Source of the DNA: Lytechinus pictus
Taxonomy: Eukaryota
Direction of reading: 5' to 3'
DNA: 60,000 nt
Assembly: GCF_037042905.1 (NCBI RefSeq)
Contig: NC_087250.1
Span: 18,044,001-18,104,000 of the forward strand
Shown here: in pieces, positions 21,301 to 58,299 of the stretch
How the letters are laid out: each line of letters opens with the position of its first letter
Numbering within the stretch: position 1 is the stretch's first letter
Translations under genes and position numbers: made by a program
The notes under the pieces: model-generated
What the model saw: only the letters and a program-made list of their open reading frames with translations
Told to the model about the DNA's origin: nothing
Databases searched by the model: none

Positions 21301-24300
21301 CGGCGGGAAACTTGACACTGCAATCTTGTTTCTCATTGTTCTTTGCCAACGTTACGGACGCATGCGTCCGTAACGTTATTTTAATGAATTCTTGTCTAAA
21401 CATGAAATGTTTTACTTTAACTTATAGGTAAATATCATTGTACATGCCTCAATTTATTTTGTCTGTATAAGTTCATTGTGATTATTTCGCCACATTACTT
21501 TGTTCTGTTGAAAATGAAATAAATTGAAATTGAATTGAAATCGATACCGTAGAAATGTCGGAAATAAAGTTGTATCCCATTTAAATGATTTAGGGCTAGA
21601 TCTTTTAGAAGGAAAGTAGAAATCTCGGGGGCGAAAGTTTCTGGTTTTTTGGCGGTACGTGCAGATGAATGGGGAGGAATCCCTGGCTCCGTGGAAAGTA
21701 AGCATACGTTAGTAAATGATTTTTACTCTCTAGGAGCCCCCTGGCGAGGGGATACTTAGATTTGGTTAGGACGGGGGTGTGCGGCTGAAGGTTTAAAACC
21801 CATACCCATATTTACGAGTCATTTCGGCTAAAAGTGTACCCTTTATTTAAGGGATTTTAATAAAATTTGACAAGCAAAAAATAATAAATAAAAGAAGTTA
21901 TCACCCAAATTTGGAGGAGAATATGGACCCATGTTTAAGGCCAGTATCTAAAAATTGGGGCCATGTTTAGGGAATTTCCAGCATAAAACCATACCGCATG
22001 TTTAGAGATTTTTTTTTTCCAAAAAAGCGACCCGTATGCCTTATTTTGTGAGTACTTTAAATCGCTTTGGGATTAGTTTCATGCTAACAAGGAGCCTGAT
22101 TGCTAAGAGCACCTTATTTGTTTTATGGTTATCAAATAAGTTCTGAAGCTTAATTACCTGGCTCTCAATTTCTCCTCCTTCACGATGGCACGTGATTGTG
22201 ACGTCACCAGCCTTTGTTTCAACATTGAAAGGGACCGAGCGATGACATCTATGGTAAGATTGTTGTCTCGACTTCTCTTGTGTTGCCTAAAAAGATTATA
22301 ACGATTATATTTAATTTCAATTATTGAAAAATGAGAAAAAATATCAAAATTCATATTTTATAATTCTAACTAGAAATCTGGAGTACAGAAACTCCGAAGA
22401 CTAATTTTGCCTGCCCAATTAATCTTCGGCGCGGCAGCGCTATATATTTGTCTGACGCGGCCGGAGCTCCCGACTTCCCACCGGTTGTGAATCGGACTCT
22501 CTACCAGCTTTATAGCCAACACAACCGTTGAAATGATTGATATTGTGTATTAATGTTATTATCAACATGCAATTACAGATGTGAAAAGTTTACTTTTCTT
22601 GATGAATGTGTAAAAAATCCTGATTTTTATTTACAACGGTGCTAATATCTTTAAGCAGAATTATCTATAATAATTTTGATGATAAGAGCAATACTGATTA
22701 TGACAGTGATAATTATATTAAGATTGATAATGACAATAATAATAAAAATAATAATACTATCAATGATAGTGAAATGGTTCAGAGCGCTTCAAATCATTAC
22801 GTCAACCAATAGCATTCAAGTAATTTTGTTCTACCCGCAAACATTCACCTAGCTCATCTGGCTGGAGGGTGGAAAATTTTCAATCAACAATTTCTCAAAT
22901 GATAAAGATCTTCGGGTTTTCAGAGCTGTTTTTTTTTGGCGAATGAATTATAATTCTGAACTTATATGGAGCGACGATGTTTAATACTGACCGCTTCGTT
23001 TCCAGGTAGGTCGTTACACAACTGAAGATTAACTGCAAGCTCTTTTCCTCTTTCGATCCTGTATGGGACGTATGGAGTACAAATAAGTTGCTGTCGGATC
23101 ACCTGTTGTTCAAGAGGAATCAGAACCCACCACTCCGCACAGTGGCCAATGTACAACTCAAGATGTTTCTTGTACAGTCTGCAGTATGGTGGTTTGTCTG
23201 GTGAGCTGGATGACTGCTTCCTTAGAGTTTTCGGTAGATCTTGTTTTACCAATGCCGAAAAGAGAAAAGATCAATGGAATGAATTTTATCACGACTTTCA
23301 GAAAGTCACAATGGTTATTAACTGTATAATTATCAGAAACGGTATTATTAGTGACATAATTAGCTGCTGAAGGAAGCTAATGTATTGAATGAAGACATTG
23401 CGGTGTTGATTTTTTTTTTATAACAAACATGTGTACACGTTGGTATCAATAATGCACAAAGCATTTTCATTCATCTGTGTTTTGGAAACATTTTACATAC
23501 CTTTATTTGGAATATATTTTACATACATTTAATTGTTTGGTTTAAAATTGATACTTGTTGTAATTATATACATTCTTTCTAGCACAAAGCTCAAAGAAGG
23601 GAGGATGTTACAATATCTGCATGTTTATGAGATTTGAGGAGCATGTAATGATCCTACCAAAAGAGGGCGCTACAAACCTTTAGTACTTATAAAATGCTTC
23701 TCTCTCGACTATACAGAAGCTGTGTTATTCTGTTTGACTCTGACTCATAATATAACTTGAAACATGATGGCAGCGGTGAAAAGTTACATATTTCCGTAGA
23801 ACAGTTATTGTTCTTCTCTCTGAACTCTATTATGCATCTGCAAACTGTGTTTTGACCTGGATTTCGCCAGCTTTCTGAGAGTCATTCCTGCATGTGTCCC
23901 ACATATGTAAGTCGGTGTACTGTTTTCTACATTCAGTATAGCTGCTATTAGTATTGGTGTGAATTACCATTCTGACTTACTGTTACTACTGTTGATTGCA
24001 TGATGACTGATAATCATAGTGATGGGTCTCCTTCCGAGCTTCCACATGGAGCTACTTTTGCTAAGCCTTCCATTCAACCCCTGGGCATTTTAATGCGTCT
24101 GCTGGGCATAATGTCGCAGAGGAGTGGAAAATGTGGAGCCAGCAATGGGAAAATTACTCTATTCTCACAAATCTCTCTCAACAACCTGATCGTTATCAGA
24201 CTGCCCTTCTCCTTCACAGTGTTGGACCGGAATGTCTTCGCGTCTACAATGGCATGAAATTTGCTACTGAGGCTGATAGCATCAAATGTTCTGTGATTAT

Positions 24301-27300
24301 ATGGACAAGTTTAACACACATTTCCTTGGGGAGAGCAGGGAATTCTTTGAGAGATTTAAATTCAACCAGCGCAATCAAGAGAGTGGTGAATCCATTGAGC
24401 AGTATGTCACGGTTCTTCTTATGATGAGCAAAACGTGTGGATTCTGTGACTTTATAAAAGACAAGCTGCTTGTTGATCGTGTCCTACTCGGTGTGCGTGA
24501 TGATCGAATGAGAGAACTACTCATTTCGAGATCTGACCTTGACCTCACGACTGCTATAGACGTGTGTAAAGCTGTAGAGGCTACTTCTGTCCAAATGAAA
24601 GCTCTGAGTCAAAAGAATGAAGACATACATAAAGTTGGACAGAGACATTTCCCAAAGTCTGGAAGAAAAAGAATAGCGCATAGAAACCAAAAGGGAAAGA
24701 TCTACAGAAAGGTAAATCAGAGGTTAAGAAGTTCAAGTTCTGTAACAGGGTTCATGAGATGAAAAAAGAGTCCTGTCCAGCATGGGGACAAAAGTGCAAA
24801 GCTTGCAGTAAGCCTAATCACTTCAAGGGATCTTCAGTGTGCAAGACGAGGAATGTTCACCATGTCGGAGATGATGACTACTCATCCTCAGCTGAAAGCA
24901 TTAGTTTTGTGCAAATTAATGCAGTGGATATGGACAAAGAGCCAATTATCTGTAACATGCTTATCAACAATCAGAGGGTACCGTTCCAACTGGACTCAGG
25001 TGCAACAGTGAATCTTCTTCCACAAAAGTATCTAAAAGAGGAGGATGTAGTTCAGAGTGCAAACATCCGTCTATCTATGTGGAACAAAGCTATAACTCAT
25101 GCTATTGGCAAGTGTAAGGTGATAACCAGAAATCCTGCTACTGGCAAGAAATACAAAGTTGAATAAATTGTAGTAAAGGAAGATCTACCTCCACTGTTAA
25201 GCAAAACAGCAGGGGAAAAGATGCAGCTCATTACTGTTCATTATGATTCCCTTGAGCTAGTACGCAGCATAGTTCCTGAGGACATTGCTGAGATAATTCC
25301 TGACAAGCATCCTGATGTGTTCTCGTCTTCTTCAATTGGCACTCTGCCTGGAAGTCCTGTTGATCTGACGGTTACGGATGATGCAATGCCTACTGTTTGC
25401 CCAGCTAGAATCATCCATGAATCCTTGAAAGGCAATATAAAGGATGCACTTGATGATCTTCAGGCAAAAGACATCATCGAAGAAGTCAGCTCTCCAACTG
25501 ATTGGGTAAATCAGATGGCTGTGGTGCAGAACAAATCTGGTAAAGTACGTGTTTGTCTAGACCCCAGACCTCTCAAGAGGGAGCACTATCCCTTACCTGT
25601 CTTAGATGATATTCTACCTCAGCTTTTCAGATGCTACAGTCTTTTCAATCTGTGACTTGAAAGACGGATACCTTCACTGCCAGTTAGATGAAGAGTCTAG
25701 TTTACTGACGACTTTTGCCCCACCCTTGGGAAGGTACAGATGGAAACGTCTTCCATTTGGTTTGAAAGTCAGCAGTGAAATCTTCCAAAAGAGGCTTCAC
25801 CAAGCACTTGATGGTCTTTCTGGAGTCCGCTGTGTGGCCGATGACATCATCATCTGGGGCAACAGTGACGCTGAGCATGATGCCCGACTGCATTGTCTAC
25901 TGAAGAGATGTCAAGCTGTTGGCATTGTGTTGAACAAGGAGAAATGCCAGTTCCGACTGAAAGAAATCTCATTCCTTGGCCACATAGTATCCAACTCTGT
26001 AATCAAACCTGATCCATCAAAGATCGAAGCTATCCTGAACATGAGCGATCCTTCCTGCAAAGATGACATCCATCGTTTGCGTGGGATGGTAAACTACCTA
26101 TCCAGATACCTACCTAAGTTATCAGATGTGATGAAACCTCTCAATGACTTGACGCATAACAACTCAGCGTGGACTTGGGACTCCAACCACGACAAAGCTT
26201 TCAAGCTGTTGAAAGAGATGCTAGTGCAAGCACCTGTGTTGGCCTTCTACGATCATAGCAAACTGCTAGAAATTCAGACTGATGCCAGCTCCACAGGCGT
26301 GGGTGCGGTTATGCTACAAGATGGTAGACCGATAGCCTATGCTAGCAGAATGCAGAGTGATGCTGAATCCAGACACTCTGTCACTGAGAAAGAAATGCTT
26401 GGTATAGTATTTGCACTGGAGAAATGGAATCAATACACCTATGGCCGTGAAATAACTGTGTTCACTGACCACAAACCTCTTGAAACCATCTGCAAGAAAC
26501 ACCTGGATAGAGCTCCAAAGCGTCTGCAAGGGTTACTGCTACGAGCTCTTGCATATGACATACAAGTGAGATATCTCAAGGGCAAGGAAAACGTTCTGGC
26601 TGATGTTCTTAGCCGTGCTTCTCTTCCCTATGAGAGTGGACAACATGATCTAGAAGTGGTGAATGATGTTAACCACTTGGCACTCCCTGATGACAAGATA
26701 GCAGAGATAAAAAGACAGACTGCCAATGATCCTACTCTCTGCCAACTCAAAGACACCATTCTTGAAGGGTAGCCAGACCACAAGTCACAACTTCCTCAGT
26801 CACTCACCCCGTACTTTGGTTTCAGAGATGACCTTTCTGTCAGTGATGATCTAATCTTCAAGGGTGAACGGCTTGTAGTCCCAAAACAAGTCAGGCACAA
26901 AATGAAAGAGGAGTTACATCGTGGTCTCAATGGTGTCGAGTCAACTTTGAGGAGAGCTCGTGATCATCTCTACTGGCCGGGCATGAGTAACGAAATCAAG
27001 GAATTTATTCAAACATGTGCCACATGCCGAGAAAGCTCTATCTCACAGCCTGCCCAGCCTCTGATGTCGCACCAGATTATTGACAGACCATGGGCCAAGA
27101 GAGGACTTGATCTTTTCCATCATAGTAATGACACATATCTTATCATGGTCTGTTATTACTTAAACTTCTTTGAGATGGAAAAACTACAGAGGACAACTGC
27201 CCCTGCAGTCATCAAGAAACTGAAACACCAGTTTGGGAGATATGGAGTACCTGAAATCATCGTATCTGACAATGGTCCCCCTTTCTCCTCTAACGAATTT

Positions 27301-30300
27301 GCTGAATTTGCCAAAAAGCTTGGAGTTAAGCATAATACCATCTCTCCATACAACAGCAAAGCTAATGGCAAAGCAGAGTCTGCTGTCAAGACTGCAAAAA
27401 GAGTACTTACAAGATGCAATGATACTGGAGATGATGTTGATCTAGCCTTACTCAACATTCGCAACACCCCTACACAAGGTATCCAGAGTAGTCCAGTCCA
27501 GAGATTAATGGGTCGTCGGACTCGTACTCTCCTCCCCACTTCGACTCGGTTGCTTGCACCTGATCGCAACCCACAGGCTGATCTTGAGAGACTGAAAGAA
27601 AGCCAGAAACGTCAAGCAAAGTATTTCAACAGAGATACAAGAAAGTTGAAAGATCTCTCACTAGGAGCAATAGGAGGAGTCAAGCCATTCAACAATGACA
27701 AGAAGTGGAAGAAAGCAGTTATCCTTAAGAAACTGGATGACCGTTCCTATGAAGTTCGCTGTGAGGGCCAGGTTCTCAGAAGGAACAGAGAACACCTCAG
27801 AGCCACATCTGAACCACAAGATGTACATGACACTGGTCCTGCTCTTTACAACTGGAGACGTTCTGATGGTAATCCTCAACCTGATGTACCAACTACTGAG
27901 CGCCATACTTCCCACACCAGGACCCAGATATCACAGACCGCGGATATCAACAGTCCGGAGAAGTCGCGTGATGCAAACTTGAATACCTCAGAAATGGAAC
28001 CAACCAACCCAGCTTCCCTGAGACGATCTAGACGTCAGCGACGCGAACCGCTTAAGATGAGGGATTTTGTTACGTTTTGAACATTTAAACCGAAGAAGGA
28101 AAGAAAGTGAATGCTGAAATAAACAAACTGAACGCTAACATTTCTTAAACATTTTTTTTTTGCTTTAACTCAAGCAAATTTTGAAGTCAGAACTGAACCA
28201 ACAACCAACTCATCTATCAAATCGTTTATTTGGACTTATTTTTATTTTGTGAAATCAACCTGGACAATTTAACCTGGACTTTAAAATCATTTTGTTTGCA
28301 ACTGGAAGAACTGTTTTGAACTCAATTATTATTTTTTTTGCAAGTATTATAATTGTGCAACTACAAAAAATGTGAAAGTCTCATAAACTGGTTTTTTGGA
28401 CATATATTTTGGAAACATTTTACATACATTTAATTGTTTGGTTTAAAATTGATACTTTTTGTAATTATATACATTCTTTCTAGCACAAAGCTCAAAGAAG
28501 GGAGGATGTTACAATATCTGCATGTTTATGAGATTTGAGGAGCATGTAATGATCTTGCCAAAAGAGGGCGCTACAAACCTTTAGTACTTATTAAATGCTT
28601 CTCTCTCGACTATACAGAAGCTGTGTTATTCTGTTTGACTCTGACTCATAATATAACTTGAAACAATTTGATGCAAGATAAAAGAGAAATGCATAGAAAT
28701 ACGCCTCGGTCAATGAAGGGCCGTGCCGGGAATCGAACCCCGAACTTTCAATGTGTAGTCGGGCGGCTTAGACCACTCGGCCACGACACCACGCCGTTAA
28801 TAGTGAGAATGATTACGATCGATGCGACTTGTAATAACTTATTGTAATGATGATCTTAAAAATGTCAAATTTGATATTTTTTAAGTAGCATCAAGGTCAT
28901 TTTAAGAAAGAAAAAAAAGCCCCTATGCTTTACTGTTACCAATGATACGTTTATTGTCTTACTGCAATATCAGTCTTCATAGACTTACCCTTGATTGAGT
29001 CCCACACACGACAAACGATGTCTGGTTTCACCTGCTCTGGATTGACGACCAAAGAAGAGTGTGGTATAGTGATCTTAACAGGCTGGTTGAAGATCAAAGG
29101 TTGAGGGTCACACTTGATCCCATAACAGGCCATTGATTCTCCTTCAGTGATATCGACACCAGGATTGTCTCTTAGGATGGTTAGGGTGATCTGACAAGAA
29201 ACATCAGGTGGAACCGCTCCAGGAGGAAGGTACATTGATATTCCAAGGTCTTCTAGATTGATTTCCTGACTAGAATTTCTGTTGACTTTGACCGAGGCAT
29301 CAGAAGAGTTGGATAGCCGATCTGTGATACAAGGTGAACAACAAAGGTCATGGTACGAACAATATAGAAGAACAAAACTGTATTTTAGGCAATGAAATAG
29401 AACAATTAACAAACATTTTCACAATATACATGATCGATGTATAGGCCTATCAAAAGATGATATAAGCCTTGTGTTTTGATCTCGGCTATTCAAATTCAGT
29501 TCAAAATGGTTTATTTTTGGAATAAAAGAATCAATCGAGACATAAAGACGAATGACAAAAGTTTTGACAATTGTAGGTTAAAATCAATGAGGCAAGGCAT
29601 ATCGTACAGTATCACCAAACACAAAAGCACCAGTTATCACATAGCATAAGATGAACGATTACAGAACACTGACCATACGACAAGACGTCAGCGAACACAA
29701 TCAAGGAAAATAGCATTAAAAAATCTGCTAATATATAAACTACAAAGTTTTAGAATCAATATGATTCACAAGTATTCAGATATATGCAAAAAAATCAATG
29801 CTAAAATCAGAATATTGATTTCCAGATCTTAAAAAAGTATTAAGAATGGGAATGAATGGGAAGGTGACGCGAAAGGTGAAGTTAATAGGAATACGGGAAA
29901 TGAATAAGGGAAAATGTATTGAGAGATTTAATATAAAAGTACATAGGAGGTAAAGTATTATGAGAAATGTTAGGAAGAATAACGAGAGCGAAACGAAGAA
30001 TAAGAACAAAAAGAGAGGAAGTGGAAGGGCAAGAAGAATCAAAGATGGAAGAACATTACTATATTAAACGAGAGGAAACAGGTAATTGAATGAAAAGACG
30101 GAAAAATTGAAATACAAAGTTAATATACATATAGTGGGAATATAGGTACAAACCACTTGTTCCTAATTTTAATACCCCAGGTAAAAAAACCAGTTGAAAC
30201 CAGTTGAAATTTTAACTGGTTTCAACTGGAGTCAACTGGTACCAGTTGAAACCAATTGGCACAACTGGTAAACTCCCACCATGCCAGTATATTCCAGTTG

Positions 30301-39300: not shown

Positions 39301-42300
39301 TCGATTGTGATGAAATTTCCAATGTTGTGGTTGATTGATTTTTTTTCTGGGGTGGACTTGATCTTTGAAATGAAAATACATGTACTACAGAACCCGTTTG
39401 TACCGGAAATTTAGTTTAAACAAAATAATTGTTCACCTTGCCAATATCATCTGTCTGATCATTTCATCCTTTGCATAGTGGATTGGTAGGCAATCTGCTT
39501 CATCCTTAATATCAATCCTGGCTCCATGTTCCAAGAGATAGAACACCAATGCCTTCTCAGGAGATAACCTGCCACTGTAGTATTTTTCGGATACCTGCAA
39601 CGGATGAATAACTTAGTTTGTGTGGTAATTATACATACAACCTTCAAATACCGATTTTTGAAAGGCTCAACGAAAATAAAAAATCATTGTATGAATTAAA
39701 TATTAACTTTCTCACAAATTTAATAAAGTGAAAATAGTCTTATATGCTTTTTCATTATATCTTAATTGAATGTTATGCATCGTATTGCAATTAGCAGTGG
39801 ATGCCGAAAATGCCATGATGATCAGTTGACTTAAATGTTTTAAAATCCAAGTGTGCACTGAAAATTGAGGCAAATGTATTTTACAAGACTAACCTTTCTG
39901 AGTGTTTCGGTGCCTTCAACATTCTGTTTCTTTTGGTAGCATAATTTGATAGCTTTATGAAGACATGTCTGACCGTCATTAGACTGTACATTGATATCAG
40001 ATCCTTTAGCAATCATCCTTTCAATGATGGATGTAAGTCCGTACATCACAGCTAGATGGATGGCCACTGAATCATTCTGGATTGACAAAATTATATAAAC
40101 GTAGTAGGAAAATTAGCATTCCTGTGAATGGTATTAGAAGCAGCATCAGTAAAATATTCGTCGTATATAAGATTGTATTAAACTTAAATTGTGAACTCTA
40201 TATGGATGATAATCAATGACCTTTGTTTTTCTTCAAGAGTTTTACTGCATTTGATATATTCGATCAGCTGAGGGACATGCATGTCTGCAGGTATTAATTA
40301 AATTGTTAATATAGTTTAAAGCCAGGCTTTTAAAGTTGTAATATGAAAGAGAGAAGAAGAATGATTAAACTTTTTTTTTCAAATTTGTATCAGTACTTTC
40401 GGTAAAATTTCCATGGGCGGTATTCTGAAAATTGTGTTAACTGTGGTGTGTTTGTGCTAACACGGTTTTCAGAATACCGCCCCAGGGTGTATGCATGACC
40501 TACCTTAGCATTCAACTTGTCGATAAGCAGACCAGCAATGTCTCTATGCCCAAGGGTAATCGATTGATGTAAGGGTGTTTGGCCGCGAATGTCTTCTGTG
40601 TCACTAAGTGCTCCACCTGTAAGCAGGAATTTAACAACGTTAATGTAACCATGCTGAACAGCGATGTGTAATGATGTTCTCCCTTCATTGTCTGCTTTAT
40701 TCACCTCCAGGGAGTCACCTTTTGAGAGCAATGCGTGTTGATCTTCTGCGTTTCGATTTACCTCACCTGTAAATTTGAGCAGATATTCGATGACGCCAAA
40801 ACTGCAATTTGTTGCAGCACAGTGCAACACAGTCCAGCCATTGGCTGTTCTCTTATTCACATCTGCTCCTTGGCTGATAAGGTATTTGATGACGTCATAA
40901 TGAGCATTCTCAACAGCATAGTGTAATGCAGCCCGACTATCATTATCCTCCTTATTGACCTCAGCTCTCTCACTGATCAGATATTTGATGACGTCAATAT
41001 GACCATTCTCACCAGCACGGTGTAATGCAGCCAAACCATCATTATCCTCCTTATTGACCTCAGCTCCCTCACTGATCAGATATTTGATGACGTCAATATG
41101 ACCCTTCTCAGCAGCACGGTGTAATGCAGTCCCACCACCATTATCCTCCTTATTGATCTCAGCTCCTTCACTGATCAGATATTTGATGACGTCAATATGA
41201 TCACTGTTGGCAGCACATTGTAATGCAGTCCCACCATCACTATCCTCCTTATTGACCTCAGCTCCCTCACTGATCAGATATTTGATGACGTCAATATGAC
41301 CATTCTCAGCAGCACGGTGTAATGCAGTCCATCCATCATTATCCTCCTTATTGACATCAGCTCCCTCACTGATCAGATATTTGATGACGTCAATATGACC
41401 ATTCTCAGCAGCACGGTGTAATGCAGTCCATCCATCATTATCCTCCTTATTGACCTCAGCTCCCTCACTGATCAGATATTTGATGACGTCAATATGACCA
41501 TTCTCAGCAGCACGGTGTAATGCAGTCAAACCATCACTATCCTCCTTTTTGACCTCAGATCCCTCACTGATCAGATATTTGATGACGTCAATATGACCTT
41601 TCTCAGCAGCACGGTGTAATGCAGTCCCACCACCATTATCCTCCTTTTTGACATCAGCTCCCCCACTAATCAGATATTTGATGATGTCAATATAACCATT
41701 GTTAGCAGCACGGTGTAATGCAGTCAAACCATCATTATCCTCCTTATTGACCTCAGCTCCCTCACTGATCAGATATTTGATGACGTCAATATGACCGCCC
41801 CAAGCAGCACAGTGAAATGCAGTCAAACCATCACTATCCTCCTTTTTGACCTCAGCTCCCTCACTAATCAGATATTTGATGATGTCAATATAACCATTGT
41901 TAGCAGCACGGTGTAATGCAGTCAAACCATCATTATCCTCCTTATTGACCTCAGCTCCCTCACTGATCAGATATTTGATGACGTCAATATGACCGCCCCA
42001 AGCAGCACAGTGAAATGCAGTCCCACCACGATTATCCTCCTTATTGACCTCAGCTCCCTCACTGATCAGATACTTGATGACGTCAATATGACCATTCTCA
42101 GCAGCACGGTGTAATGCAGTCTTACCACCATTATCCTCCTTATTGGCCTCAGCTCCCTCACTGATCAGATATTTGATGACGTCAATATGACCATTCTCAG
42201 CAGCACGGTGTAATGCAGCCAAACCATCATTATCCTCCTTATTGACCTCAGCTCCCTCACTGATCAGATATTTGATGACGTCAATATGACCATTCTCACA

Positions 42301-44350
42301 AGCACGGTGTAATGCAGCCAAACCACCATTATCCTCCTTATTGACCTCAGCTCCCTCACTGATCAGATATTTGATGACGTCAATATGACCACGGTTAGCA
42401 GCACGGTGTAATGCAGTCCCACCACCATTATCCTCCTTATTGACCTCAGCTCCCTCACTGATCAGATATTTGATGATGTCAATATGACCATTGTTAGCAG
42501 CACGGTGTAATGTAGTCAAACCATCATTATCCTCCTTATTGACCCCAGCTCCCTCACTGATCAGATATTTGATGGCGTCAATATGACCAATGTTAGCAGC
42601 ACGTTGTAATGCAGTCCCACCACCATTATCCTTCCTATTGACCTCAGCTCCCTCACTGATCAGATATTTGATGACTTCAATATAACCATTCTCGGCAGCA
42701 TGGTGTAATGCTGTCTCACCCCACTTATTCTTCTTATTGACCTCAGCTCCTTCCCTGATCAGATTTTTCATGATGTCAATATGACCATTCATAGCAGCAC
42801 GGTGTAATGCAGTCCGTCCATGATTACCCTCCTTATTGACCTCAGCTCCCTCACTGATAAAATATTTTATGACGTCAATATGACCATTCAAAGCAGCATG
42901 GTGTAATGCAGTCCGTCCATGATTATTCTCCTTATTGACCTCAGCTCCCTCACTGATCAAATATTTGATGACGTCAATATGACCACTGTTAGCAGCACGG
43001 TGTAATGCAGTCCGTCCATGATTATCCCCCTTATTGACCTCAGCTCCTTCGCTGATCAAATATTTGATGACGTCAATATGACCATTCTCAGCAGCATGGT
43101 GAAATGCAGTCCCACCACCATCATCCTCATTATTGACCTCATCTCCTACGCTGATCAAATATCTGATGACGTCAAAATGACCATTCTCAGCAGCATGGTG
43201 TAATGCTGTCTCACCCCACTTATCCTTCTTATTGACCTCAGCTCCTTCCCTGATCAGATTTTTTATGACGTCAATATGACCATTCCTAGCAGCACGGTGT
43301 GATGCAGTCCATCCATGATTACCCTCCTTATTGACCTCAGCTCCCTCACTGATCAAATATTTGATGACGTCATTATGACCATTCAAAGCAGCATGGTGTA
43401 ATGCAGTCCGTCCATGAATATTCTCCTTATTTACCTCAGCTCCCTTACCGATCAAATATTTGATGATGTCAATATGACCGCTGGTAGCAGCACGGTGTAA
43501 TGCAGTCCGTCCATGATCATCCCCCTTATTGACCTCAGCTCCCTCACTGATCAGATATTTGATGACGTCAATATGACCATTCTCAGCAGCACGGTGTAAT
43601 ACTGTCTCACCACGATTATCCTCCTCATTGACTTCATATCCTACGCTGATCAAATATCTGATGACGTCAAAATGACCATTCTCAGCAGCATGGTGTAATG
43701 CTGTCTCACCCCACTTATCCTTCTTATTGACCTCAGCTCCTTCCCTGATCAGATCTTTTATGACGTCAATATGACCATGGATAGCAGCCGTGCGTAGTCG
43801 AGTCCAAAGGTCCATACATGTAGCTCCGAGAAAAAGAAATGTTTAATATTTTGATTGTCATAGCTAGCTGAGTGAAACTTTCACTATTTGTTTTTCTGTG
43901 TGTTGCTAAAATGAAACCAGCCTTAAAATGCATACATGTAACTCTACAACTGTTGTAAATTATTTGTGTTTTTTTGTTGGATGGATGAATTACCTTGTAG
44001 AAAAGAAATATCCCAGATATACATGTACATCACTATAATACATTATTTTTAAAGGAACTATCAGCACAGTATCACTAGATAAAGGTGCTATGTCAGGTGT
44101 GTAGTCAGATGTTACCCCGAGTTATCATATTTAGGTAGATGGGATGGTTAACGATGTTAGGAAGGGGTAGTCTTTACTTCATTTTTCAGAGTAAGAATAC
44201 AGCCAGGACTAACATGGAGTCATTTACATTGATGTTAACCCGATATACACAGACTTTTATAGACCCAGTACAGAGCTACAAGCGAAATCTAAAAATGAAA
44301 AATGTATAGGCCACAAAGGCTTGCAACGCCAACTCACCTAACCACGCCAT
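3060..44350 (-). CDS. Multi-exon gene: ankyrin-repeat / ZU5-UPA / multi-death-domain protein (PIDD/UNC5/ankyrin-like), about 23 exons, about 2362 aa
   Basis: Hand-assembled exons join in consistent codon phase (7089 nt) from ATG 44350 to TGA 3060. All junctions are GT-AG except the exon 12 acceptor. Domains recognised from motifs. Confidence 0.8.
3490..4976. mobile_element. Palindromic Tc1/mariner-pogo-like non-autonomous element
   Basis: TA|ccgtgtga...tcacacgg|TA; inverted homology along most of its length (e.g. 4001-4050 vs 4430-4480). Confidence 0.7.
5597..5624 (-). CDS. Exon 22: 28-nt linker (VEPDYEKNQR)
   Basis: CAG acceptor, GTAAGG donor; phase 1-2 is required to reach the last exon. 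Confidence 0.7.
5876..5970 (-). mobile_element. tRNA-derived SINE head
   Basis: Minus-strand A box (gtggccgagtgg) and B box (ggttcgatcccc) followed by SINE body. Confidence 0.65.
6133..6277 (-). CDS. Exon 21: UPA-like (VHPRSLLSGGCNTIHVNL...VRVCIEQG)
   Basis: AAG acceptor, GTATGT donor; phase 0-1. Confidence 0.75.
6644..6775 (-). CDS. Exon 20: UPA-like (GVRQNYSLSEH...DDIKLSCLSG)
   Basis: TAG acceptor, GTAAGC donor; phase 0-0. Confidence 0.75.
6887..8847. mobile_element. Tc1/mariner-like non-autonomous element hosting a nested Helentron-like repeat
   Basis: TA|cagtgcgtat..gtttacact vs degenerate agtgcgaac..tatacacact. Confidence 0.55.
6961..8013 (+). mobile_element. Helentron/HINE (DINE-1-like) element
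   Basis: Poly-T start, subterminal inverted repeats gtctcacctgcat/atgcaggtgagac, internal ~125-bp tandem repeats; second copy at 48719-49514. Confidence 0.7.
8985..9211 (-). CDS. Exon 19: end of ZU5-2 / start of UPA-like domain
   Basis: ORF 8913..9227; TAG acceptor, GTATGT donor; phase 1-0. Confidence 0.8.
9344..10851. mobile_element. piggyBac-like MITE with TTAA TSD
   Basis: TTAA|ccctaaatagaccggg ... cccagtctatttaggg|TTAA. Confidence 0.8.
9584..10459. mobile_element. hAT-like MITE nested in the piggyBac-like MITE
   Basis: caggggcgtcgatcc/ggatcgacgcctctg TIRs; 8-bp TSD cccgaaag/ctcgaaag; repeated gcgagcgcgaagcgcgagc motif. Confidence 0.78.
11024..11371 (-). CDS. Exon 18: ZU5 domain 2
   Basis: GIIDHDGGDL...IRVSIPSGAIP...LLTPIIQC...KPATVALPH; phase 1-1. 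Confidence 0.9.
11777..12025 (-). CDS. Exon 17: death-like domain 4
   Basis: DLSQRLDLPASEI...MVLQMLQKWAKQGGTRLRLLEMV; AAG/GTAGGT; phase 1-1. Confidence 0.8.
12226..12519 (-). CDS. Exon 16: death-like domain 3
   Basis: LDLAKALRLD...LAWRLFHQWCR; TAG/GTATGA; phase 1-1. Confidence 0.78.
12770..17568. mobile_element. Academ-type non-autonomous foldback element (4.8 kb)
   Basis: Long TIRs (a/t)agtc..gacta, 3-bp TSD tta, ~1 kb high-identity arms plus degenerate inner symmetry. Confidence 0.8.
13836..14407. mobile_element. Kolobok-like MITE with TTAA TSD, nested in the foldback left arm
   Basis: TTAA|aggggaatcca ... tggattcccct|TTAA; absent from the right arm. Confidence 0.78.
17778..17906 (-). 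CDS. Exon 15: acidic linker (EPDEDEDEENED)
   Basis: CAG acceptor, GTAGGA donor; phase 1-1. Confidence 0.75.
18130..18147 (-). CDS. Possible 18-nt microexon (GRLDQR)
   Basis: CAG acceptor, GTATAA donor; phase 1-1, not needed for frame. Confidence 0.4.
18496..18755 (-). CDS. Exon 13: death domain 2 (not in the ORF track)
   Basis: EIPDCTLLQFSRRINKEKFYEIGKQLGFDDLELQHIEHR...IQMLSMWK, paralogous to exon 11; phase 2-1. Confidence 0.82.
19018..19069 (-). CDS. Putative exon 12: 52-nt linker whose acceptor reads AC instead of AG
   Basis: Strong pyrimidine tract, GTAAGT donor, open frame with the required phase 1-2, but no AG. Confidence 0.4.
19733..20019 (-). CDS. Exon 11: death domain 1
   Basis: FYDMGIALGFTIAELDRVE...YDMLLAWR death-fold pattern; phase 2-1. 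Confidence 0.85.
20380..20425 (-). CDS. Exon 10: 46-nt linker
   Basis: TAG acceptor, GTAAGT donor; phase 1-2. Confidence 0.72.
20743..20905 (-). CDS. Exon 9: UPA-like C-terminal part (IVSLRDLLAK...AFVIRYT)
   Basis: CAG acceptor, GTAGAA donor; open; phase 0-1. Confidence 0.78.
21029..21747. mobile_element. hAT-like palindromic MITE nested in a poly-G-ended repeat
   Basis: ~220-bp TIRs; 8-bp TSD gggggtac/ggggatac. Confidence 0.75.
22158..22286 (-). CDS. Exon 8: UPA-like (ATQEKSRQQSYHRCHRSVPFNVETKAGDVTITC)
   Basis: tttttag acceptor, GTAATT donor; phase 0-0. Confidence 0.78.
22992..23239 (-). CDS. Exon 7: end of ZU5-1 / start of UPA-like domain
   Basis: ORF 22962..23252; AAG acceptor, GTCAGT donor; phase 1-0. 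Confidence 0.8.
23606..23764 (+). repeat. 5' LTR core (159 bp)
   Basis: TG...CA; near-identical to 28507-28665. Confidence 0.85.
24000..28080 (+). pseudogene. gag-pol (Gag zinc knuckles, protease LDSGA, RT VADD, RNase H, integrase) broken by stops and frameshifts
   Basis: ORF fragments at 24131, 24286, 24759, 25221, 25606 and 26902 in PR-RT-RH-INT order. Confidence 0.92.
28507..28665 (+). repeat. 3' LTR core (159 bp)
   Basis: Follows the PPT; TG...CA. Confidence 0.85.
28697..28791 (-). mobile_element. tRNA-derived SINE head
   Basis: A box and B box (ggttcgattccc) on the minus strand; similar to 5876-5970. Confidence 0.6.
28989..29321 (-). CDS. Exon 6: ZU5 domain 1
   Basis: LGISMYLPPGAV...FNQPVKITIPHS ZU5 motifs; CAG/GTAAGT; phase 1-1. 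Confidence 0.88.
30190..31510. repeat. Left subterminal array (CCAGTT/AACTGG motifs, ~178-bp higher-order units)
   Basis: Repeated ccagttggaacccatagacctcccataacccacttgaaacccatt blocks. Confidence 0.85.
30575..30667 (-). mobile_element. Short SINE/LINE 3' end with (TTA)n tail inserted in the array
   Basis: (AAT)n followed by GC-rich body, flanked by a duplicated attgata. Confidence 0.55.
32965..33258 (+). promoter_or_regulatory. CpG-rich Pol II promoter-like region with a candidate first-exon donor
   Basis: GC box, NRF1 motif TGCGCATGCGCA 32985-32996, octamer 33031-33038, CCAAT 33065, YY1-like GCCATCTT 33089, cag|GTAAGT at 33253. Confidence 0.55.
33822..34008 (+). mobile_element. 3' fragment of an RTE-clade LINE
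   Basis: Translates (frameshifted) to RGRPKTTW...EEEMKSVNMTWG...QKKAQ...EWRS..FVAALH, followed by a taag-like tail. Confidence 0.6.
34477..35541. repeat. Recent ~530-bp tandem duplication; older related copy at about 36755-37110
   Basis: 34477-35004 is nearly identical to 35005-35541. Confidence 0.9.
35840..36426. mobile_element. Kolobok-like MITE with TTAA TSD
   Basis: TTAA|agggatggtcc ... ggaccatccct|TTAA. Confidence 0.8.
37790..38400. repeat. Right subterminal array (40-bp units alternating as 80-bp dimers)
   Basis: ccaactgg(tttt/tcct)aactggcaccagttgacaa... tandem. Confidence 0.88.
38520..38554 (-). CDS. Exon 5: 35-nt linker microexon (LPSLDDVQFTK)
   Basis: TAG acceptor, GTAAGA donor; phase 2-1 bridges its neighbours. 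Confidence 0.7.
38792..39366. mobile_element. Degenerate Kolobok-like MITE
   Basis: Decayed aaaggacaa.../ggggtggacttgatcttt ends; internal motifs shared with 35840-36426. Confidence 0.45.
39437..39594 (-). CDS. Exon 4: ankyrin C-cap (LVFYLLEHGARIDIKDEADCLPIHYA)
   Basis: ttgcag acceptor, GTGAAC donor, phase 0-2. Confidence 0.85.
39894..40076 (-). CDS. Exon 3: divergent ankyrin repeats (NDSVAIHLAV...GQTCLHKAI)
   Basis: CAG acceptor, GTTAGT donor, phase 0-0. Confidence 0.85.
40504..43823 (-). CDS. Exon 2: 33 ankyrin repeats in a single 3.3-kb exon
   Basis: ORF 40390..43815; consensus KEDNxGxTALHRAAxxGHIDVIKYLISEGAEVN; donor AAG|GTAGGT at 40503; weak GAG acceptor. Confidence 0.93.
40855..43725 (-). 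repeat. Coding tandem array of 29 full near-identical 99-bp units
   Basis: 99-bp periodicity without indels, read directly in DNA and protein. Confidence 0.95.
44338..44350 (-). CDS. Exon 1, coding part (MAWL); the exon probably starts at 44376 after an acceptor
   Basis: gcaccATGG Kozak context, in-frame stops upstream, GTGAGT donor; phase 1 matches exon 2. Confidence 0.6.
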
Positions 44351-51441: not shown

Positions 51442-51773
51442 GAGTTCCCATGCGTCAATTAGCCCCAATCTAGGTCTGTTACAACACAGTAAAAGGAGAT
51501 GATGGACTATATTTGACATTAAAAAAACATTTTCATCCACATTTTACCTCATCGGCAGAAATAGCTGATTTTAGTTCGTTCATTCGTTTTGATGGGGGGG
51601 GGGTATAGTCATAGTCCTATCCTTAGGCTAAATTTTAAGTGTACCTTATTTTTATGTTTACAACAGGATAGGGTATCTCATAAGACCTTAGTGTGCGAGC
51701 GCAAAGTGCGAGGTCAATTTTTTAATATTTCACGTAAATATTTATTCCTGAAAATTGATTGTTAAGCAGTGTT

Positions 51774-51823
51774 GAGGTCCCGGGTTCGACTCCCGGACAA
51801 GCCCCCATTTTACTCCCCTCTTC
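51774..51823 (-). other. PPT directly joined to a second 34-nt tRNA-Pro/PBS copy
   Basis: Minus strand gaagaggggagt-aaaa-tgggggcttgtccgggagtcgaacccgggacctc. Confidence 0.85.
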
Positions 51824-51877
51824 GAGAAAATGCTCTTACTTTTATTTTATTTTATTTTATTTTTTTTTTTTTTTATT

Positions 51878-54385
51878 TCACAACCTACTCAATACGTCTG
51901 CTCCGACATTGTCGCTGCCGCAAATCGCTTCTACGCGAAATCTGTAAGGTTGCAATGCTAAGATCCAGCGCATCAGCTTTCCATTGGCTGGGTTTACACT
52001 ATTCATGTAGGTTAATGGTTGATGATCAGTTTCGAGCACAAATTGCCTACCATATAAGTATGGCTCGAACTTTCTTACAGCCCATATTATGGCTAAACAC
52101 TCACGTTCAATGGTGGAATATGCTTGTTCTCTTCGAAGTAACTTACGACTTGCATATGCTACTGGGAATCGTTCCTCTTCGTGTGTCTGAAGCAGGACTG
52201 CTCCAATTCCAACATTTGATGCATCTGTTCTGAGTATGAAATCTGTTGACAAGTCTGGTAGATGAAGGATGGGTGGATTGGTTAGTTTGTCTTTGAGTGT
52301 TTTGAATGCATGTTCCTGATTGGTTTCCCATCTGATTTGATTTGGCTCATCTTTCCGAGTCCTATCTGTCAGTGGAGCGGAAATGGCAGAATAGTTGGGT
52401 ATGAACTTCCTATAGTAGTTGGTCATGCCGATAAATGATCGAAGCTCTCGTTTGGTTTGAGGTCTGCTGATTTCTTGGATGGCCTTGAGTTTCTCTGGTC
52501 GAGGACTTACTGTTCCATCTTCGATTACGTGTCCCAGAAATTCGACCTTCGATTGTCCCACAAAGCATTTACTGGGTCTGGCTGTCAGTTTTGCTGCTCG
52601 TAGCCTGCTAAGCAACTCGGTGAGTGTGGCAAGATGCTGATCCCACGTGGTTGAATGTATCAGGATTTCGTCTATATAGTTTACAGCTCCATCAAGTCCT
52701 TTTAGTAGTCTTCTCATCATTCGGCTGAAGGAGGCAGGCGCATTCACCAAGCCGATGGGCATGACTGTAAACTGAAAAAGGCCATCAGGAGTGAGAAAGG
52801 CAGTTAGTGGTTTTGATTTGTGTGACATAGGAACTTGCCAATAGCCTTTACTTAAGTCTACCTTAGTAAAGTATTTGGCATGTGCGACTTTTGTGAATAA
52901 TTCATCTTGATCGGGTATGGGTTCAGCGTCGAATACAGTGACCTTGTTGAGCTTCCGATAATCTACGCAAAAACGGTTACTACCATCAGGCTTTTTGACT
53001 AAGACAATTGGGGAAGCTATGGGGCTATCTGAAGGTTCTATAACCCCCATAGACAGCATGGTCTTCACTTCATCTCTGACAGTGTCCCTAAGAGAATGAG
53101 GAATAGGGTAAGGTTTACTCTTTAACTGTTTGTGATCACCGACTTTGAGTAAAATGTTGTGTTCGCCAAGTGATGTGCGATTCGGCAGATCTGACATGAC
53201 GTCTTTGTAGTTGTTGAGAAGTGCATTGACCTGTTCTTTTTGTGAGGGAGAAAGATCTGGATTAATGGTAACATCAGCAAGTGATTCCTTAGCCTGTAAT
53301 GGAAATGGCTGCAAGAGAGATCTGTTTGTTAGTTGGGGTGGAGATGGTGTGTCTTCATCTTCGGCATTATCCTCGCATTCAACCACTGCGGAGCAAATTG
53401 TCTCAATACCTGAAAGAGAAGGAGATGTGTTATTTCTGTCATAATATTTCTTTAGGAGATTTATGTGGAATACCTTTGGTTTACCATTCAAATCGATTCT
53501 GTAGTCCGTTGAGCTTACTTTGGAGACAACTTCAAAAGGGCCTTTCCATTGCAGAAGAAGCTTGTTTCGGTCTGTTGGCAGTAGAAGGAGTACTCTGTCT
53601 CCAACTTGGAATTCTCTGTGTTTGGCTTTCTGATTGTAGTACCTTGCGTGTCTCTCTGAAGATTTCTGTAGTTGAGTATGAGCATTGCGACAAGTCTCGT
53701 CGATTCTGTTCCGAAGATCCAAGATATAGTGGTAGGTAGACTTGGTTTCGGCTGTCTCAGCTTCACCTGTCCAGAGTTCTTTGAGGATGTCGAGGGGTCT
53801 ACGAACTTTCCTTCCGTAGAGAAGTTCAAATGGGGAAAACCCCATGTTTTCCTGAGGTGCCTCTCTGACTGCAAATAGAAGTGGGGTGATATACCTGTCC
53901 CAGTCCTTTGGGTTCTCGGCACACATACGTTTCAGCATCTGCTTTAAGCTTCCATTGAATCTTTCAACAAGACCATTTGCAGCTGGGTGATATGGCGAGG
54001 TCGTGAAGTGGCGTATAGACAGTAGCTTGCTTACTTCTTTCATGAGATCTGATGTAAATTGTGTTCCTTGATCTGTCAGCATTTCCTTTGGAATCCCGAC
54101 CCTGGTGAAGACGCTTACAAGAGCCTCCGCTACCCTCTCTGTTTCGATGCTAGGGAGTGGAATCGCCTCAGGATACCTAGTGGCATAATCAACAATTGTG
54201 AGAATGTAACGATTTTTGTTTTCTGTCATGGGATGTATTGGTCCAACAATATCTATAGCTATACGTTCAAAGGGGACTTCAATGATTGGCATCTTTCCTA
54301 ATGGGACCTTTTTTACTCTGCCTTTACCTAAAGTGCGTTGACATATGTCACATGATCGGACATATCGGATAATGTCATAATTCAT
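51878..54385 (-). pseudogene. Pol: integrase, RT, RNase H; RT catalytic motif reads YIDE
   Basis: ORF 51878..54385, separated from gag by a stop and a frameshift. Confidence 0.92.
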
Positions 54386-54414
54386 ACCGGCCAGAAGAAA
54401 TTGGTAAGAATTTT

Positions 54415-56370
54415 TTATGTGGTTTTCTTTGCTCCTTGGTGGCCTCCTAGAAGATTCTCATGAGCTGTCTGCATTACTTGCTTACGGTATTGTTTTGGAA
54501 CAACAACTTGTGTGATTACTGTATCTGAATCCTTGGAAGAAAGGAAGGATCTGTATAGAATCCCGTCTTTATAGAAGAAGGAAGACTTATTATGATGACG
54601 ACTTACTTTCTCTGTTCCAGCATCAACCAGTTCTCTCAGTCGATGTAGAGTCTCATCCTTCTGTTGTGTTTCCTTGAGAACTGATGGGATGACGACTTCT
54701 TCCATTGGATGTGGAGTCTTGAGTGGACGAAATGGCTTGCCTTCTCGTTGGACTTGTGCTCTTGTCTGTACTGCGCAGACTGGAATGACGGTCTCTGGTA
54801 ATGTCCATTGTGGATCTGGTTGCTCTGCTGGTCTCACACCTGGAATATTTCCTAAGATAAGGTCATAGAGAGGAGTTTTCATACTTACAGCACGAACTTT
54901 ACCTACATAGAAATGTGTATTGATATCGATCACTGCAATGGGGAGAGTTCTAATTGATTGATCAATTAGCAAACAAGTACAAACTTCACTTGTCATTTGA
55001 CTTTGTTTTACAATATCTTGTTTGATGATGATACCACTGGATCCGCTGTCTCTGAGAACGGAAATGACATTGTTATTTACAAGTCCCTTGGTAACAGGCA
55101 TACGTTTGACAAAATTTTCATTTGAGCATGCTGCACTTATTAGGGGCAAACTGTGATCATAACCAAATTTACCATAATCTGTCATAGATTCAAGGTAAGG
55201 GGTATCGTGTGGCATTCGGACCATTATGCATGAAGCTTCAAGTCTGACCTGTGTACTATTACAAGAGAGACATTGACATGGGTTATGGGAAATAGACATC
55301 GGGTTATCAGATTGTAAATAAGTAGGTTCAGCTTCCGGTGAAGGTCTGTCCTCTGGTTCCTCTGGTTCTTCCGGGATCACGAATCCTGCAGATTTAACTG
55401 GAGAGAAAGGACATGAGTTAGCAAAGTGTCCTGGCCTGTGACAGATAAAACAAGTCTTGGTCAATTGTGGTTTTTGTGATTGTTTTGGACAGTTACGAGA
55501 AATGTGTCCTTCTTGATGACAGTTGTAACATGTCTTTGGGAATGACTTAGAATGTATTTGAGGGTTATTTGTTTTACCTTCATGTCTTGTATTGATTCGC
55601 TGTGTTTGTCCTGTAGGGATGTTCCTCTGTGGCGGTGGCGCTCTGAATACACCTCCTCGTGCGTCTAGGTATTGCTCTGTGAATTTCATGGCATCATTTG
55701 TAGTCTTTGGCTGTCGTTCTCGTAGGAAGATTGACAAGTCACGATGGCATCCATTGATGAAGTGCTCTCGAAGAAGAAGATCCTTTAGGTCATCAAAATC
55801 ATGCTTGACGCCTGAGAGTTCAACCCATATGTTAAGGTAGTTCTCTAATCTGTTTGAATATTGTGATGCGGTTTCCCCATTAACTGGTTTACCTGTATAA
55901 AACTTTGAACGAAATCCTTCTAAGGTAAGTTGAAAAGCTTTCAAAAGAGCAGTTTTCAAAGTCTTATAATCTTTAGCTTCGTCACTGGTTAATCTAGAAT
56001 GAACATCAAGAGCTTTTCCTGTGAGCAAAGCGCTTAGATTCATTGCCCAATCAGTGCGCGGCCAATTTTGGGTTTCTGCATAACGCTCAAATCGCTGCAA
56101 GTAAGCATCAATATTATCTTTGTCCTCATGAAATGGTGGTAGTTTGGGAGTGCGGGCTTTCTGGCCTACAGATTTTGATTCACCTTTGACATTCTTTTCA
56201 CGCTCTATTTCTAGCTGTATTTCTGCCGTTTCTTTTTCTTGTTTCTTTAACTCCAACAACTCAGCTCTCTCATCTCTTTGCTTTTTCTGTTCATCTGATA
56301 CAAAATTTTTAAGAGCCTCACCAGTTAACCCAAACTCTTTACCAGCTGCCATAAGACTTGCTAAATCCAT
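54415..56370 (-). pseudogene. Gag (two CCHC knuckles) + aspartic protease (LRDSGS) + start of integrase; premature stop
   Basis: ORF 54415..56400. Confidence 0.9.
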
Positions 56371-56552
56371 GTTTGAAATAGGATCTCTATCAATTTGCAA
56401 AAAACTACTTCACCCAAATGAGGTCAAATGTACATGTACATTAGTATTTACACATATATATATTTACAAACATCTGCATTAAAGAAATAACTCCATTGTT
56501 ATTGTCTTGAGTTTTTTTGTTTCTTAGTTTCTAATCAATATACCCATGTGAC

Positions 56553-56591
56553 TGCGAGAGGTCCCGGGTTCGACTCCCGGACAAGCCCCCA
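56553..56591 (-). other. Extended 39-nt primer binding site complementary to tRNA-Pro positions 38-76
   Basis: Plus strand TGCGAGAGGTCCCGGGTTCGACTCCCGGACAAGCCCCCA. Confidence 0.85.
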
Positions 56592-56594
56592 AAA

Positions 56595-58087
56595 TGTCAT
56601 ATGGGCGGACTCCAAATAAAATTCAAGTAAAACTCAATGTGTACCAAATCACAATTTACAATTTATTTCAGAATACAAAACTCCAATATCAAAACATCTC
56701 TCTTCGAAGTTCAATATTGTCCAACGTATGAAGTTTAAAAGGGAAATAAAACTGTAACACCTCTAAATGATAAAGTATTCTGAAAAGTACTCTAATTCAC
56801 AAGTTTACAATCAAAGGATCCTGCATTGATCCAAGCTATAACATTCAACTCTCGATTTGTCTCTACCTCCAATATAACTGAAGAGATCCTGCACTGATCT
56901 TATCACCAACTTCAACGTTCAGTGTATTATATTTTCACCTGCAAAATTATCTCCAAAAATATCAATTAAACCTTTAACTTTGTATCTTTTGTTTTCACAA
57001 TAACGACTACCAAAAGTTCCTATAAAAGAATCCTGCATTAATCCACCTTCATAGAATTCCATTCTCACCACTTTGTATCTCTTATCATAACATTTTTGTG
57101 ATTACATTTCAAAATCCTTCTAACTCCTGAACTTGAGCTTTAAAAAAAATTATGCACCTAAATTACAGCTCAAAACTCTGTTAATCGACATCATATCCTA
57201 CACGGATTCAAACTCGAATAAACTCTTCTCACTATCAAACTGTTCATGTTCGGTCATCTTCATAATCAATGTCTATTTTCTGAAATGTCAATTTGCAAGA
57301 CTTCCTGGTATTTAGAAAGCTAGTTTCAAATTTAACGAAACGTTTCCTGCTTTCTCTCTCACTGCTATTTACAACTTATCTGTCAGGGACATGTTGACCA
57401 AAAACCTTCAGAGTCAGCACTTTATAATGTTCAGCTTAAAACAATTCACCAGTCTTCAAAGCGACCCGGTCTTGGGAAATGTCCCGATCCTGGAAATTAT
57501 CCGGTCTTGGAATATATCCCGATCTTAGAACCATCGATGGCTTCTTCAATACAGGCATAAAAATAACAGCATAAATTTAGCTAAATCTGACCTCATACAG
57601 GTATCTAAAAGTTCCAGCCAATATCAAACAAGAAAGGCTGCTTTTCTGTTTAAAGTTGAAATTCAAAAATTATCAAGATGGCAGCTAAAATGGCGACTGC
57701 CCCAAAATTGCATAGGTGTGTGTTCAAAGTCTCCAAGATGCAATGCCAGAAAACTAGTGGAAAGCTACTGGGGTCTCCTCCCAATTTTACAATTCCCCCA
57801 AAAGTATCTTAAGCAGCTGTTAAAAAGAAAAGGCTCACTGGGCTCACTAAAAGGGACCTATACAAGTCTACCACCCTGGACACAACACAAAATAGATATG
57901 CAAATTATCTCAATTCAATTCTAGCAAAAAGAATCTCACACACACTTCTCTCATCTCCTACTCACTCTTGCATAAGATCTACTCCTTGTCTCTTAGCAAC
58001 CTGGCTGAGGAGTGAAACTTAGATAAAATAAGCAAGCTTTGCTGAGGAAAATAAATAAAATAAAATAAATGCATTTTCAATGTGACA
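56595..58087 (-). repeat. 5' LTR (1493 bp), no partner copy in the window
   Basis: TGTCA...TGACA termini, AATAAA near its 3' end, PBS 3 nt downstream, TSD directly upstream. Confidence 0.75.
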
Positions 58088-58299
58088 GTGTTGCATATCT
58101 TACAGAACAATTAATGCTAGAGCGAAGCGCGATTAGAAATATCTTCATTTTATTTAGTTTATTTCATTAAAAACAATATATAAACCAAGTAAATTAATAC
58201 AATCATAACGAATCAATGTCATCAACAATGTTATCATTGTTATGGATTTTTGTTTGTTTTGGGGGGGTCAGTGGGGGTAATGAGTCTAACGCTATGTCT

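Follow-up and report, generated by a model that had tools for sequence, protein, structure and literature searches.

A retrotransposon copy of predicted Gmr1-like type in Lytechinus pictus with one long terminal repeat and a primer-binding-site copy at its other end

Anatomy and family of the element

The window analysed here, a stretch of 60,000 nt of Lytechinus pictus DNA without any N (assembly GCF_037042905.1, NC_087250.1, positions 18,044,001 to 18,104,000), carries on its minus strand, at 51769-58092, a retrotransposon insertion that possesses only one long terminal repeat (LTR). Where the 3' LTR is expected, a second copy of the primer binding site (PBS) is found instead. A first-pass annotation of the window had described the order LTR, TTT, PBS, gag/pol, polypurine tract (PPT) and second PBS without a 3' LTR, and this order stands; two of its details had to be corrected, since the spacer behind the PPT consists of four A's and not of three, and the 5' PBS is 39 nt and not 34 nt long. 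The features are as follows, all on the minus strand.

58093-58142: left flank, part of a host repeat unit
58088-58092: left AACAC pentamer, flush with the LTR, either a target site duplication (TSD) or a target repeat that existed before, to be read against the empty alleles
56595-58087: the single LTR, 1493 bp, TGTCA...TGACA, with TG...CA ends and a terminal inverted match of 7/8
58048-58078: nt 10-40 of the LTR, able to pair with the 31 nt in front of the PPT (duplex of -21.6 kcal/mol)
56592-56594: TTT spacer between LTR and PBS
56553-56591: 39-nt PBS, complement of tRNA-Pro positions 38-76 including CCA, with 2-3 mismatches to the fetched tRNA-Pro sequences
54415-56370: gag (SCAN-like capsid, two CCHC knuckles), protease (DSG) and start of the integrase, with a stop in the integrase zinc-finger region
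51878-54457: rest of pol in another frame, with integrase core, GPF motif, reverse transcriptase (RT; non-canonical catalytic motif) and RNase H
51826-51856: A-rich arm, complementary to the start of the LTR and lying upstream of the PPT
51812-51823: PPT
51808-51811: AAAA, the normal PPT-to-LTR spacer of the family, as contigs of runs X4 and X1 match up to 51806 and then leave
51774-51807: 34-nt PBS copy at the place of the 3' LTR, its first TG being common to the normal LTR start
51769-51773: right AACAC pentamer
51674-51768: right flank, continuing the same host repeat family (marginal by shuffle test)

The 3' PBS copy (51807-51774) is identical to the 5' PBS in 34 of 34 positions, and no other perfect direct repeat occurs among the 20 largest repeat families listed for the element. 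No remnant of a 3' LTR was found by comparing the LTR to the last 327 nt, which share only inverted 12-mers from A/T runs, nor did a BLAST search of the LTR against the window reveal a second LTR copy there. With its single LTR this copy departs from the canonical two-LTR structure and shows two features of a one-ended aberrant provirus: the left attachment (att) end, TGTCAC, lies flush with host DNA, and the other end consists of PPT, AAAA and PBS copy.

The A-rich arm in front of the PPT pairs with the start of the LTR (51826-51856 with 58048-58078), the pairing energy of -21.6 kcal/mol being the best of 485 LTR windows and reached by none of 500 shuffles. This duplex consists partly of A/T runs and includes a perfect 8-bp stem. 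In a two-LTR copy, the same pairing would form a hairpin with the PPT and the beginning of the LTR in its loop. Neither the PBS nor the 3' junction gives a better fold than shuffled sequences, and Rfam gave no match in the window at the gathering score; around the PBS, with E-values up to 10 allowed, only a weak match to a tmRNA T-arm appeared.

The gag-pol region is present in two pieces of 651 and 859 aa (approximately 1510 aa in total) and is broken in the integrase zinc-finger region. A SCAN-like capsid precedes the protease (E-value 1.1e-5; 25.5 bits, just below the cut-off of 27 bits); two CCHC knuckles are present, a CCHC knuckle being matched by Pfam, and a DSG protease motif lies at residue 441. 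The Pfam matches in the second open reading frame (ORF) follow the order rve (62-158), RVT_1 (487-645) and RT_RNaseH (735-838), which puts the integrase upstream of RT and RNase H. The GPF motif at residue 306 and matches to RT_RNaseH_2, SH3_Tf2-1 and Integrase_p58_C are those of a gypsy-type pol. This copy is defective, as its frame is broken and its RT catalytic motif is non-canonical.

Judged by domain order and by the summed length of its two gag-pol pieces, the element is predicted to be a Gmr1-like member of Ty3/gypsy (Metaviridae). The position of the integrase before RT has been described for Gmr1-like elements (bioRxiv 10.1101/2025.03.03.638093), and the fused gag-pol of fish Gmr elements comprises 1506-1634 aa (PMC11117352). 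The element shares with Gmr1-like elements the order of SCAN-like capsid, protease, integrase and RT-RNase H, a similar total length of gag-pol (in two pieces here), the TG...CA LTR, the tRNA priming and, in the other copies of its family, the two LTRs. It differs from them in the missing 3' LTR and the PBS-copy end of this copy, in its LTR of 1493 bp compared to 337-518 bp in fish Gmr, and in its PBS of 39 nt. Relatives of its RT were searched for in viral contigs, with no match.

For a comparison with other copies of the family, contigs from 4 of 23 listed sequencing runs (X1, X4, X5 and X15; four samples from four studies) were used. Contigs drop rare variants and their depth does not give a copy number, and all statements on these runs rest on the contig rows listed, outside of which lie 575 pieces, 236 loose ends and 14 joints. 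The copy in the window diverges from the main family contigs by 2.1-3.4% (25/1191, 32/1283, 45/1729 and 107/3135). In X4, a contig covering the end of pol (depth 417) matches the window to 51806, the G of TG, and then enters the first bases of the LTR; its depth is like that of the other internal contigs of this run (367-372). The matching contig of X1 (depth 625) ends at the very same base with 28 letters beyond it. The longest listed piece in X5 ends already at 51897, and X15 (16 of 30 bins covered) is informative for neither junction. Because the contigs of X4 and X1 follow the window up to 51806, AAAA is the normal spacer and this copy departs from the family after the TG, which is all that its junction has in common with the normal path from PPT to LTR. 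LTR contigs are 2.0-2.9 times deeper than internal contigs, with depths of 1611 versus 625 in X1, 1071 versus 367-417 in X4 and 1172 versus 539-588 in X5, ratios that agree with two LTRs per element.

As far as the contigs show, the family is an ordinary one, with two LTRs per copy and a PPT that leads into a normal 3' LTR. According to the first-pass annotation, such a result would make this copy a one-off accident rather than a system, and within the scope of the contigs this is the case. Apart from the main family type, deep contigs in X1, X4 and X5 (depths 620, 224 and 263) agree with the window only over short pieces, which lie near the PBS and in gag-pol (joints 54447-56030 and 56052-56574) and possibly represent a second subfamily or an internally deleted derivative.

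The first-pass annotation had also offered a non-canonical replication mode, in which the PBS repeats serve strand transfer in place of the 3' LTR. The tRNA pairing of the family is indeed unusual (39 nt, apparently split in most relatives), and a minor class of such copies could hide behind contigs that drop rare variants. Nevertheless, the proposal finds no support in the main path of the family, which has a 3' LTR, and by the established LTR mechanism a transcript starting inside the sole LTR cannot rebuild the unique 3' region (U3); moreover, pol is broken in this copy. A scan of metagenome contigs for the PPT-PBS pattern gave a single match (L001) without element ORFs recognisable by eye and without a tRNA continuation, which we rejected as a chance match; the weight of this negative is small, as collections of this kind contain little DNA from animals. 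Taken together, we regard such a replication mode as very improbable.

The primer binding site and its copy

The 39 nt of the 5' PBS correspond to positions 38-76 of tRNA-Pro including CCA. The reference set comprised 20 distinct tRNA-Pro contexts from 14 loci, which were obtained by a pattern scan of genome contigs and belong to organisms other than the host, the loci being apparently eukaryotic DNA within prokaryote assemblies. The identity ends at position 37 in 20 of 20 contexts. The same genome contigs yielded 18 stretches with the PBS pattern, all of which are tRNA-Pro genes according to ARAGORN in the loci scanned and none of which is a PBS. In viral contigs, one tRNA-Pro gene but no long or split PBS pattern was detected. 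Several prokaryote assemblies (L003-L018) hold contigs with clustered eukaryote-type tRNA genes, likely a host contamination.

Both PBS copies have 57G, which occurs in 4 of the 20 tRNA-Pro contexts, as well as 59C and 68A, neither of which occurs in any of them. Since 59C and 68A are common to the two PBS copies and absent from all 20 contexts, the 3' piece looks like a copy of the PBS of the element. It may thus derive from the element's own PBS and not anew from the tRNA, provided that the host lacks an isodecoder with these bases, and the earlier proposal that the 3' terminus is a tRNA copy becomes doubtful.

The same positions bear on the possibility that a complementary DNA (cDNA) with a normal 3' LTR kept an over-long copy of its tRNA-Pro primer and that the 3' LTR was later deleted between two TGs. 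Position 37 of tRNA-Pro is 1-methylguanosine (m1G) in animals. The PBS of the element stops at position 38, and read-through that extends along the primer to its modified base 37 is known as a minor plus-strand product in HIV-1 (human immunodeficiency virus type 1), m1G being given for this position of tRNA-Pro in E. coli (PMC13191261). PBS-bearing ends have furthermore been found in 8 of 63 junction insertions of wild-type HIV 2-LTR circles (PMC9198661). However, a retained primer copy should follow a complete 3' LTR, whereas here the PPT leads to the copy without any LTR sequence, so that two rare events would be needed, the second of them picking one exact pair of TGs among many. The copy is also unlike all 20 fetched tRNA-Pro sequences at positions 59 and 68. 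We therefore consider a retained primer improbable.

Other copies of the family appear to differ in their PBS. A contig of X5 follows the window into the T-loop and departs there with 59 loose letters, which begin with five tRNA-like ones, and a contig of X4 across the PBS site shows 34 gap letters and a net gain of 18 letters. The PBS of the main family type is apparently split by a spacer of approximately 25 nt inside the T-loop. The bipartite PBS of Ty1 and Ty3 (PMC5371799) and the over-extension of primers (PMC13191261) resemble this situation in that the pairing exceeds 18 nt and in that read-through can stop at position 37; the difference is that the extension runs contiguously to position 38 in the copy of the window, the main family type having the apparent split of about 25 nt. 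The 39-nt PBS and its apparent split in the main family type are probably of more interest than the missing LTR.

The insertion site

AACAC flanks the element flush on both sides, a random flush match of five letters having a probability of approximately 0.0016, and the boundary to the flanking repeat can be read as 4, 5 or 6 bp. An empty site, which the first-pass annotation had suggested to look for in other haplotypes, is present: the joint of 51762 to 58088 was detected in three of the four runs, and one contig of X4 spans both flanks. This empty joint and this contig show that the locus is real and that the insertion of the element is polymorphic.

This also bears on the question whether the unusual end is an artefact of assembly or consensus building. 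The best run had at most 0.36 of the words, and no listed contig crosses the junction, which speaks for an artefact. On the other hand, the flanks join into real empty alleles in three of four runs and the window is free of N. A collapse would remove an LTR and not make a PBS copy, and we infer that two jumps on overlaps of at most 2 nt would be needed. An artefact is accordingly quite improbable.

The target is one unit of a host repeat, which is found at 9700-10250 of the window as units of approximately 105-120 nt with a GCTCGCGCTTCGCGCTCGCA-type motif. The resemblance of both flanks to one host repeat, which the first-pass annotation took for a MITE family, is clear for the left flank (score 63.5, shuffle maximum 47) and marginal for the right flank by the shuffle test (score 66, shuffle maximum 66), where the motif does match, with three mismatches and none expected by chance.

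The TSD is less evident. The earlier description of an intact TSD holds insofar as AACAC is flush on both sides, but the pentamer is not single in the empty site: it is doubled or nearly doubled in empty alleles of three runs. In X5 and in one empty allele of X4, AACAC is tandemly doubled (minus strand) and the 8 nt that come next in the window are missing. In the empty allele of X1, 9 nt separate the two pentamers. Another contig of X4, of depth 28, has one pentamer and those 8 nt, after 19 other bases ending in AACAA; it is taken as the other haplotype, the depths totalling 59 on both sides. In two paralogous host units, the stretch from AGAT to the pentamer measures approximately 22 and 27 nt by eye, versus 4 nt in the case of a pure TSD. 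Either the flush repeat is older than the insertion or it is a true TSD that restored a unit lost from the haplotype of the window. Since each of these readings needs one coincidence (an adjacent 5-mer tandem and a chance 5-mer match both have a probability of about 0.0015 per site), they are about even, and a flush repeat should not be called a TSD until the empty allele is read. In their available parts, PMC11251516, PMC12801592 and bioRxiv 10.64898/2026.03.01.708851 contain neither a TSD length for Gmr1 nor a comparable structure. The three different empty alleles vary by small indels within approximately 20 bp of the insertion point, and the site may be a repair hot spot.

These observations bear on an origin after insertion, in which the 3' LTR of a two-LTR provirus flanked by a true TSD was lost and replaced by a 34-nt patch from the provirus's own PBS, or in which a tandem copy was cut by two deletions. 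The flush repeat, with its chance probability of about 0.0016, fits this origin, as does the agreement of the patch with the element's own PBS. If the TSD were 4 bp long, the remnant would begin with TG and end with CA, as an LTR does. In addition, the 9 extra letters in the empty allele of X1 include ATGACA, the last six bases of the LTR, but this word is equally explained by a CATGA-like word in the paralogous host units. Such an origin requires two repair breakpoints that coincide exactly with the two LTR ends, as well as a template at a distance of 4.8 kb, and an occupied two-LTR allele at the site does not occur among the rows shown. We consider it unlikely, though more probable than the other rivals.

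Origin of the aberrant end

The break lies exactly at the boundary between PPT-AAAA and TG, where the 3' LTR starts, and the added piece begins with the first base of the PBS. The two joints thus coincide with the sites at which LTR reverse transcription primes its plus and minus strands, the PPT/TG joint being also the att boundary. The LTR alone has 125 TG dinucleotides that a random deletion could have used, yet both breakpoints are on landmarks of RT or integrase. Of the origins offered in the first-pass annotation, an aberrant cDNA is the one that explains these joints best. We therefore hold it to be somewhat more probable than all else that this is a defective copy of a normal two-LTR Gmr1-like family, misbuilt once in reverse transcription.

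In such an event, the growing plus strand would have reached the PPT/U3 boundary without the LTR being copied. It might then have jumped, via a TG/CA clamp or with zero overlap, to some free 3' end that starts with the complement of the PBS. This acceptor would more probably have been a minus-strand DNA end carrying the PBS of the element, a tRNA-Pro primer being the somewhat less probable choice, and at least 34 nt would have been copied from it. The left end with its normal att site could have been joined by integrase, and the right end, lacking an att site, by host repair or by integrase via a CA-like end; assuming a TSD of 4 bp, the aberrant end reads CA. The resulting copy cannot regenerate itself, because it has neither a 3' repeat region (R) nor a 3' U3 and its pol is broken.

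Some precedents exist. In vitro, a 3' overlap of 2 nt that contains C or G is enough for RTs to switch templates (PMC3035444), which is comparable to the TG/CA here. Ty3 primes repeatedly at its PPT, and its PBS is not inherited from the tRNA (PMC5371799). Composite Ty1 insertions have been ascribed to mispriming combined with strand switching, and foreign ends that terminate in CA can be inserted by the Ty1 integrase with a normal TSD (PMC2939329). Retroviral DNA with one bad end is joined by integrase at one end and by host repair at the other, the bad end often carrying additional viral sequence (PMC5041404).

Several points weigh against an error of reverse transcription. Among the rows listed, no read or contig spans the PPT-PBS junction, and the three informative runs show empty alleles. 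An error of this kind gives no reason for the stop of the copy at 34 nt, i.e. at tRNA position 43. Where ends are joined by the host, the duplications or deletions are usually longer, unlike a flush 5-bp repeat (PMC5041404), and the flush repeat, if a true TSD, would add weight to the post-insertion origin. For the 3' piece, the tRNA-Pro of the host is a candidate template besides the element's own PBS, and the clamp data stem from in vitro work, mainly with the RT of HIV-1.

The closest known structures are aberrant proviruses of HIV-1 and avian sarcoma-leukosis virus (ASLV), in which one end is normal and the other is truncated and may be joined to further viral sequence (PMC5041404). These were induced by drugs or mutations and have long duplications, whereas the present copy is a natural germ-line copy with a short flush repeat and with joints exactly on both priming sites. 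Junctions of retroviral 2-LTR circles with PBS or PPT sequences (PMC9198661) likewise have a PBS at the DNA terminus in place of an att site, but there the PBS follows a complete LTR, which is absent here. For the clamp switching of RTs, a genomic fossil of this form was not found in the literature searched. Two further candidates were rejected: Troyka (PMC12440569), which has CG...CG ends and a 3-bp TSD, and Helenus/Ajax (PMC10886601), which are non-coding and carry the tRNA inside two LTRs. An element ending in PPT-PBS was not found in the literature searched either, most subscription journals and Repbase lying outside its coverage. The class as such is known already, in the form of one-ended aberrant proviruses and PBS-bearing cDNA ends; the exact PPT-PBS anatomy, absent from the literature searched, has been seen once.

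As a one-off, the copy would be the fossil of a reverse-transcription error with its joints on the plus- and minus-strand priming sites. It is improbable that jumps at the PPT/U3 boundary recur as a side pathway in this long-PBS lineage, aided by the 39-nt pairing with tRNA-Pro and by the possible hairpin of PPT and LTR start. If they did recur, there would exist a class of one-LTR, PBS-tailed insertions that are still inserted by integrase with a TSD and that are invisible to programs looking for two LTRs. Such insertions would be genomic fossils of RT clamp switching in vivo, i.e. of two-base template jumping in the germ line of a living animal, and they would imply an integrase that tolerates an end without LTR.

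The remaining window contains some further features. At 40393-43842 (minus strand) there is an open frame of 1150 aa made of 99-nt repeats, which resemble ankyrin repeats. Together with ZU5-like exon pieces at approximately 10959-11399 and 28954-29418, this frame suggests a long ankyrin-ZU5 gene, which would lie on the strand of the element and downstream of it. On the plus strand, 24280-28077 hold a second gypsy-type gag-pol, which is fragmented, has RT before integrase (by eye) and is presumably Mag-like. Finally, two inverted repeats of 609 nt at 12804-17544, which are 98% complementary and 3.5 kb apart, mark a young element with terminal inverted repeats.

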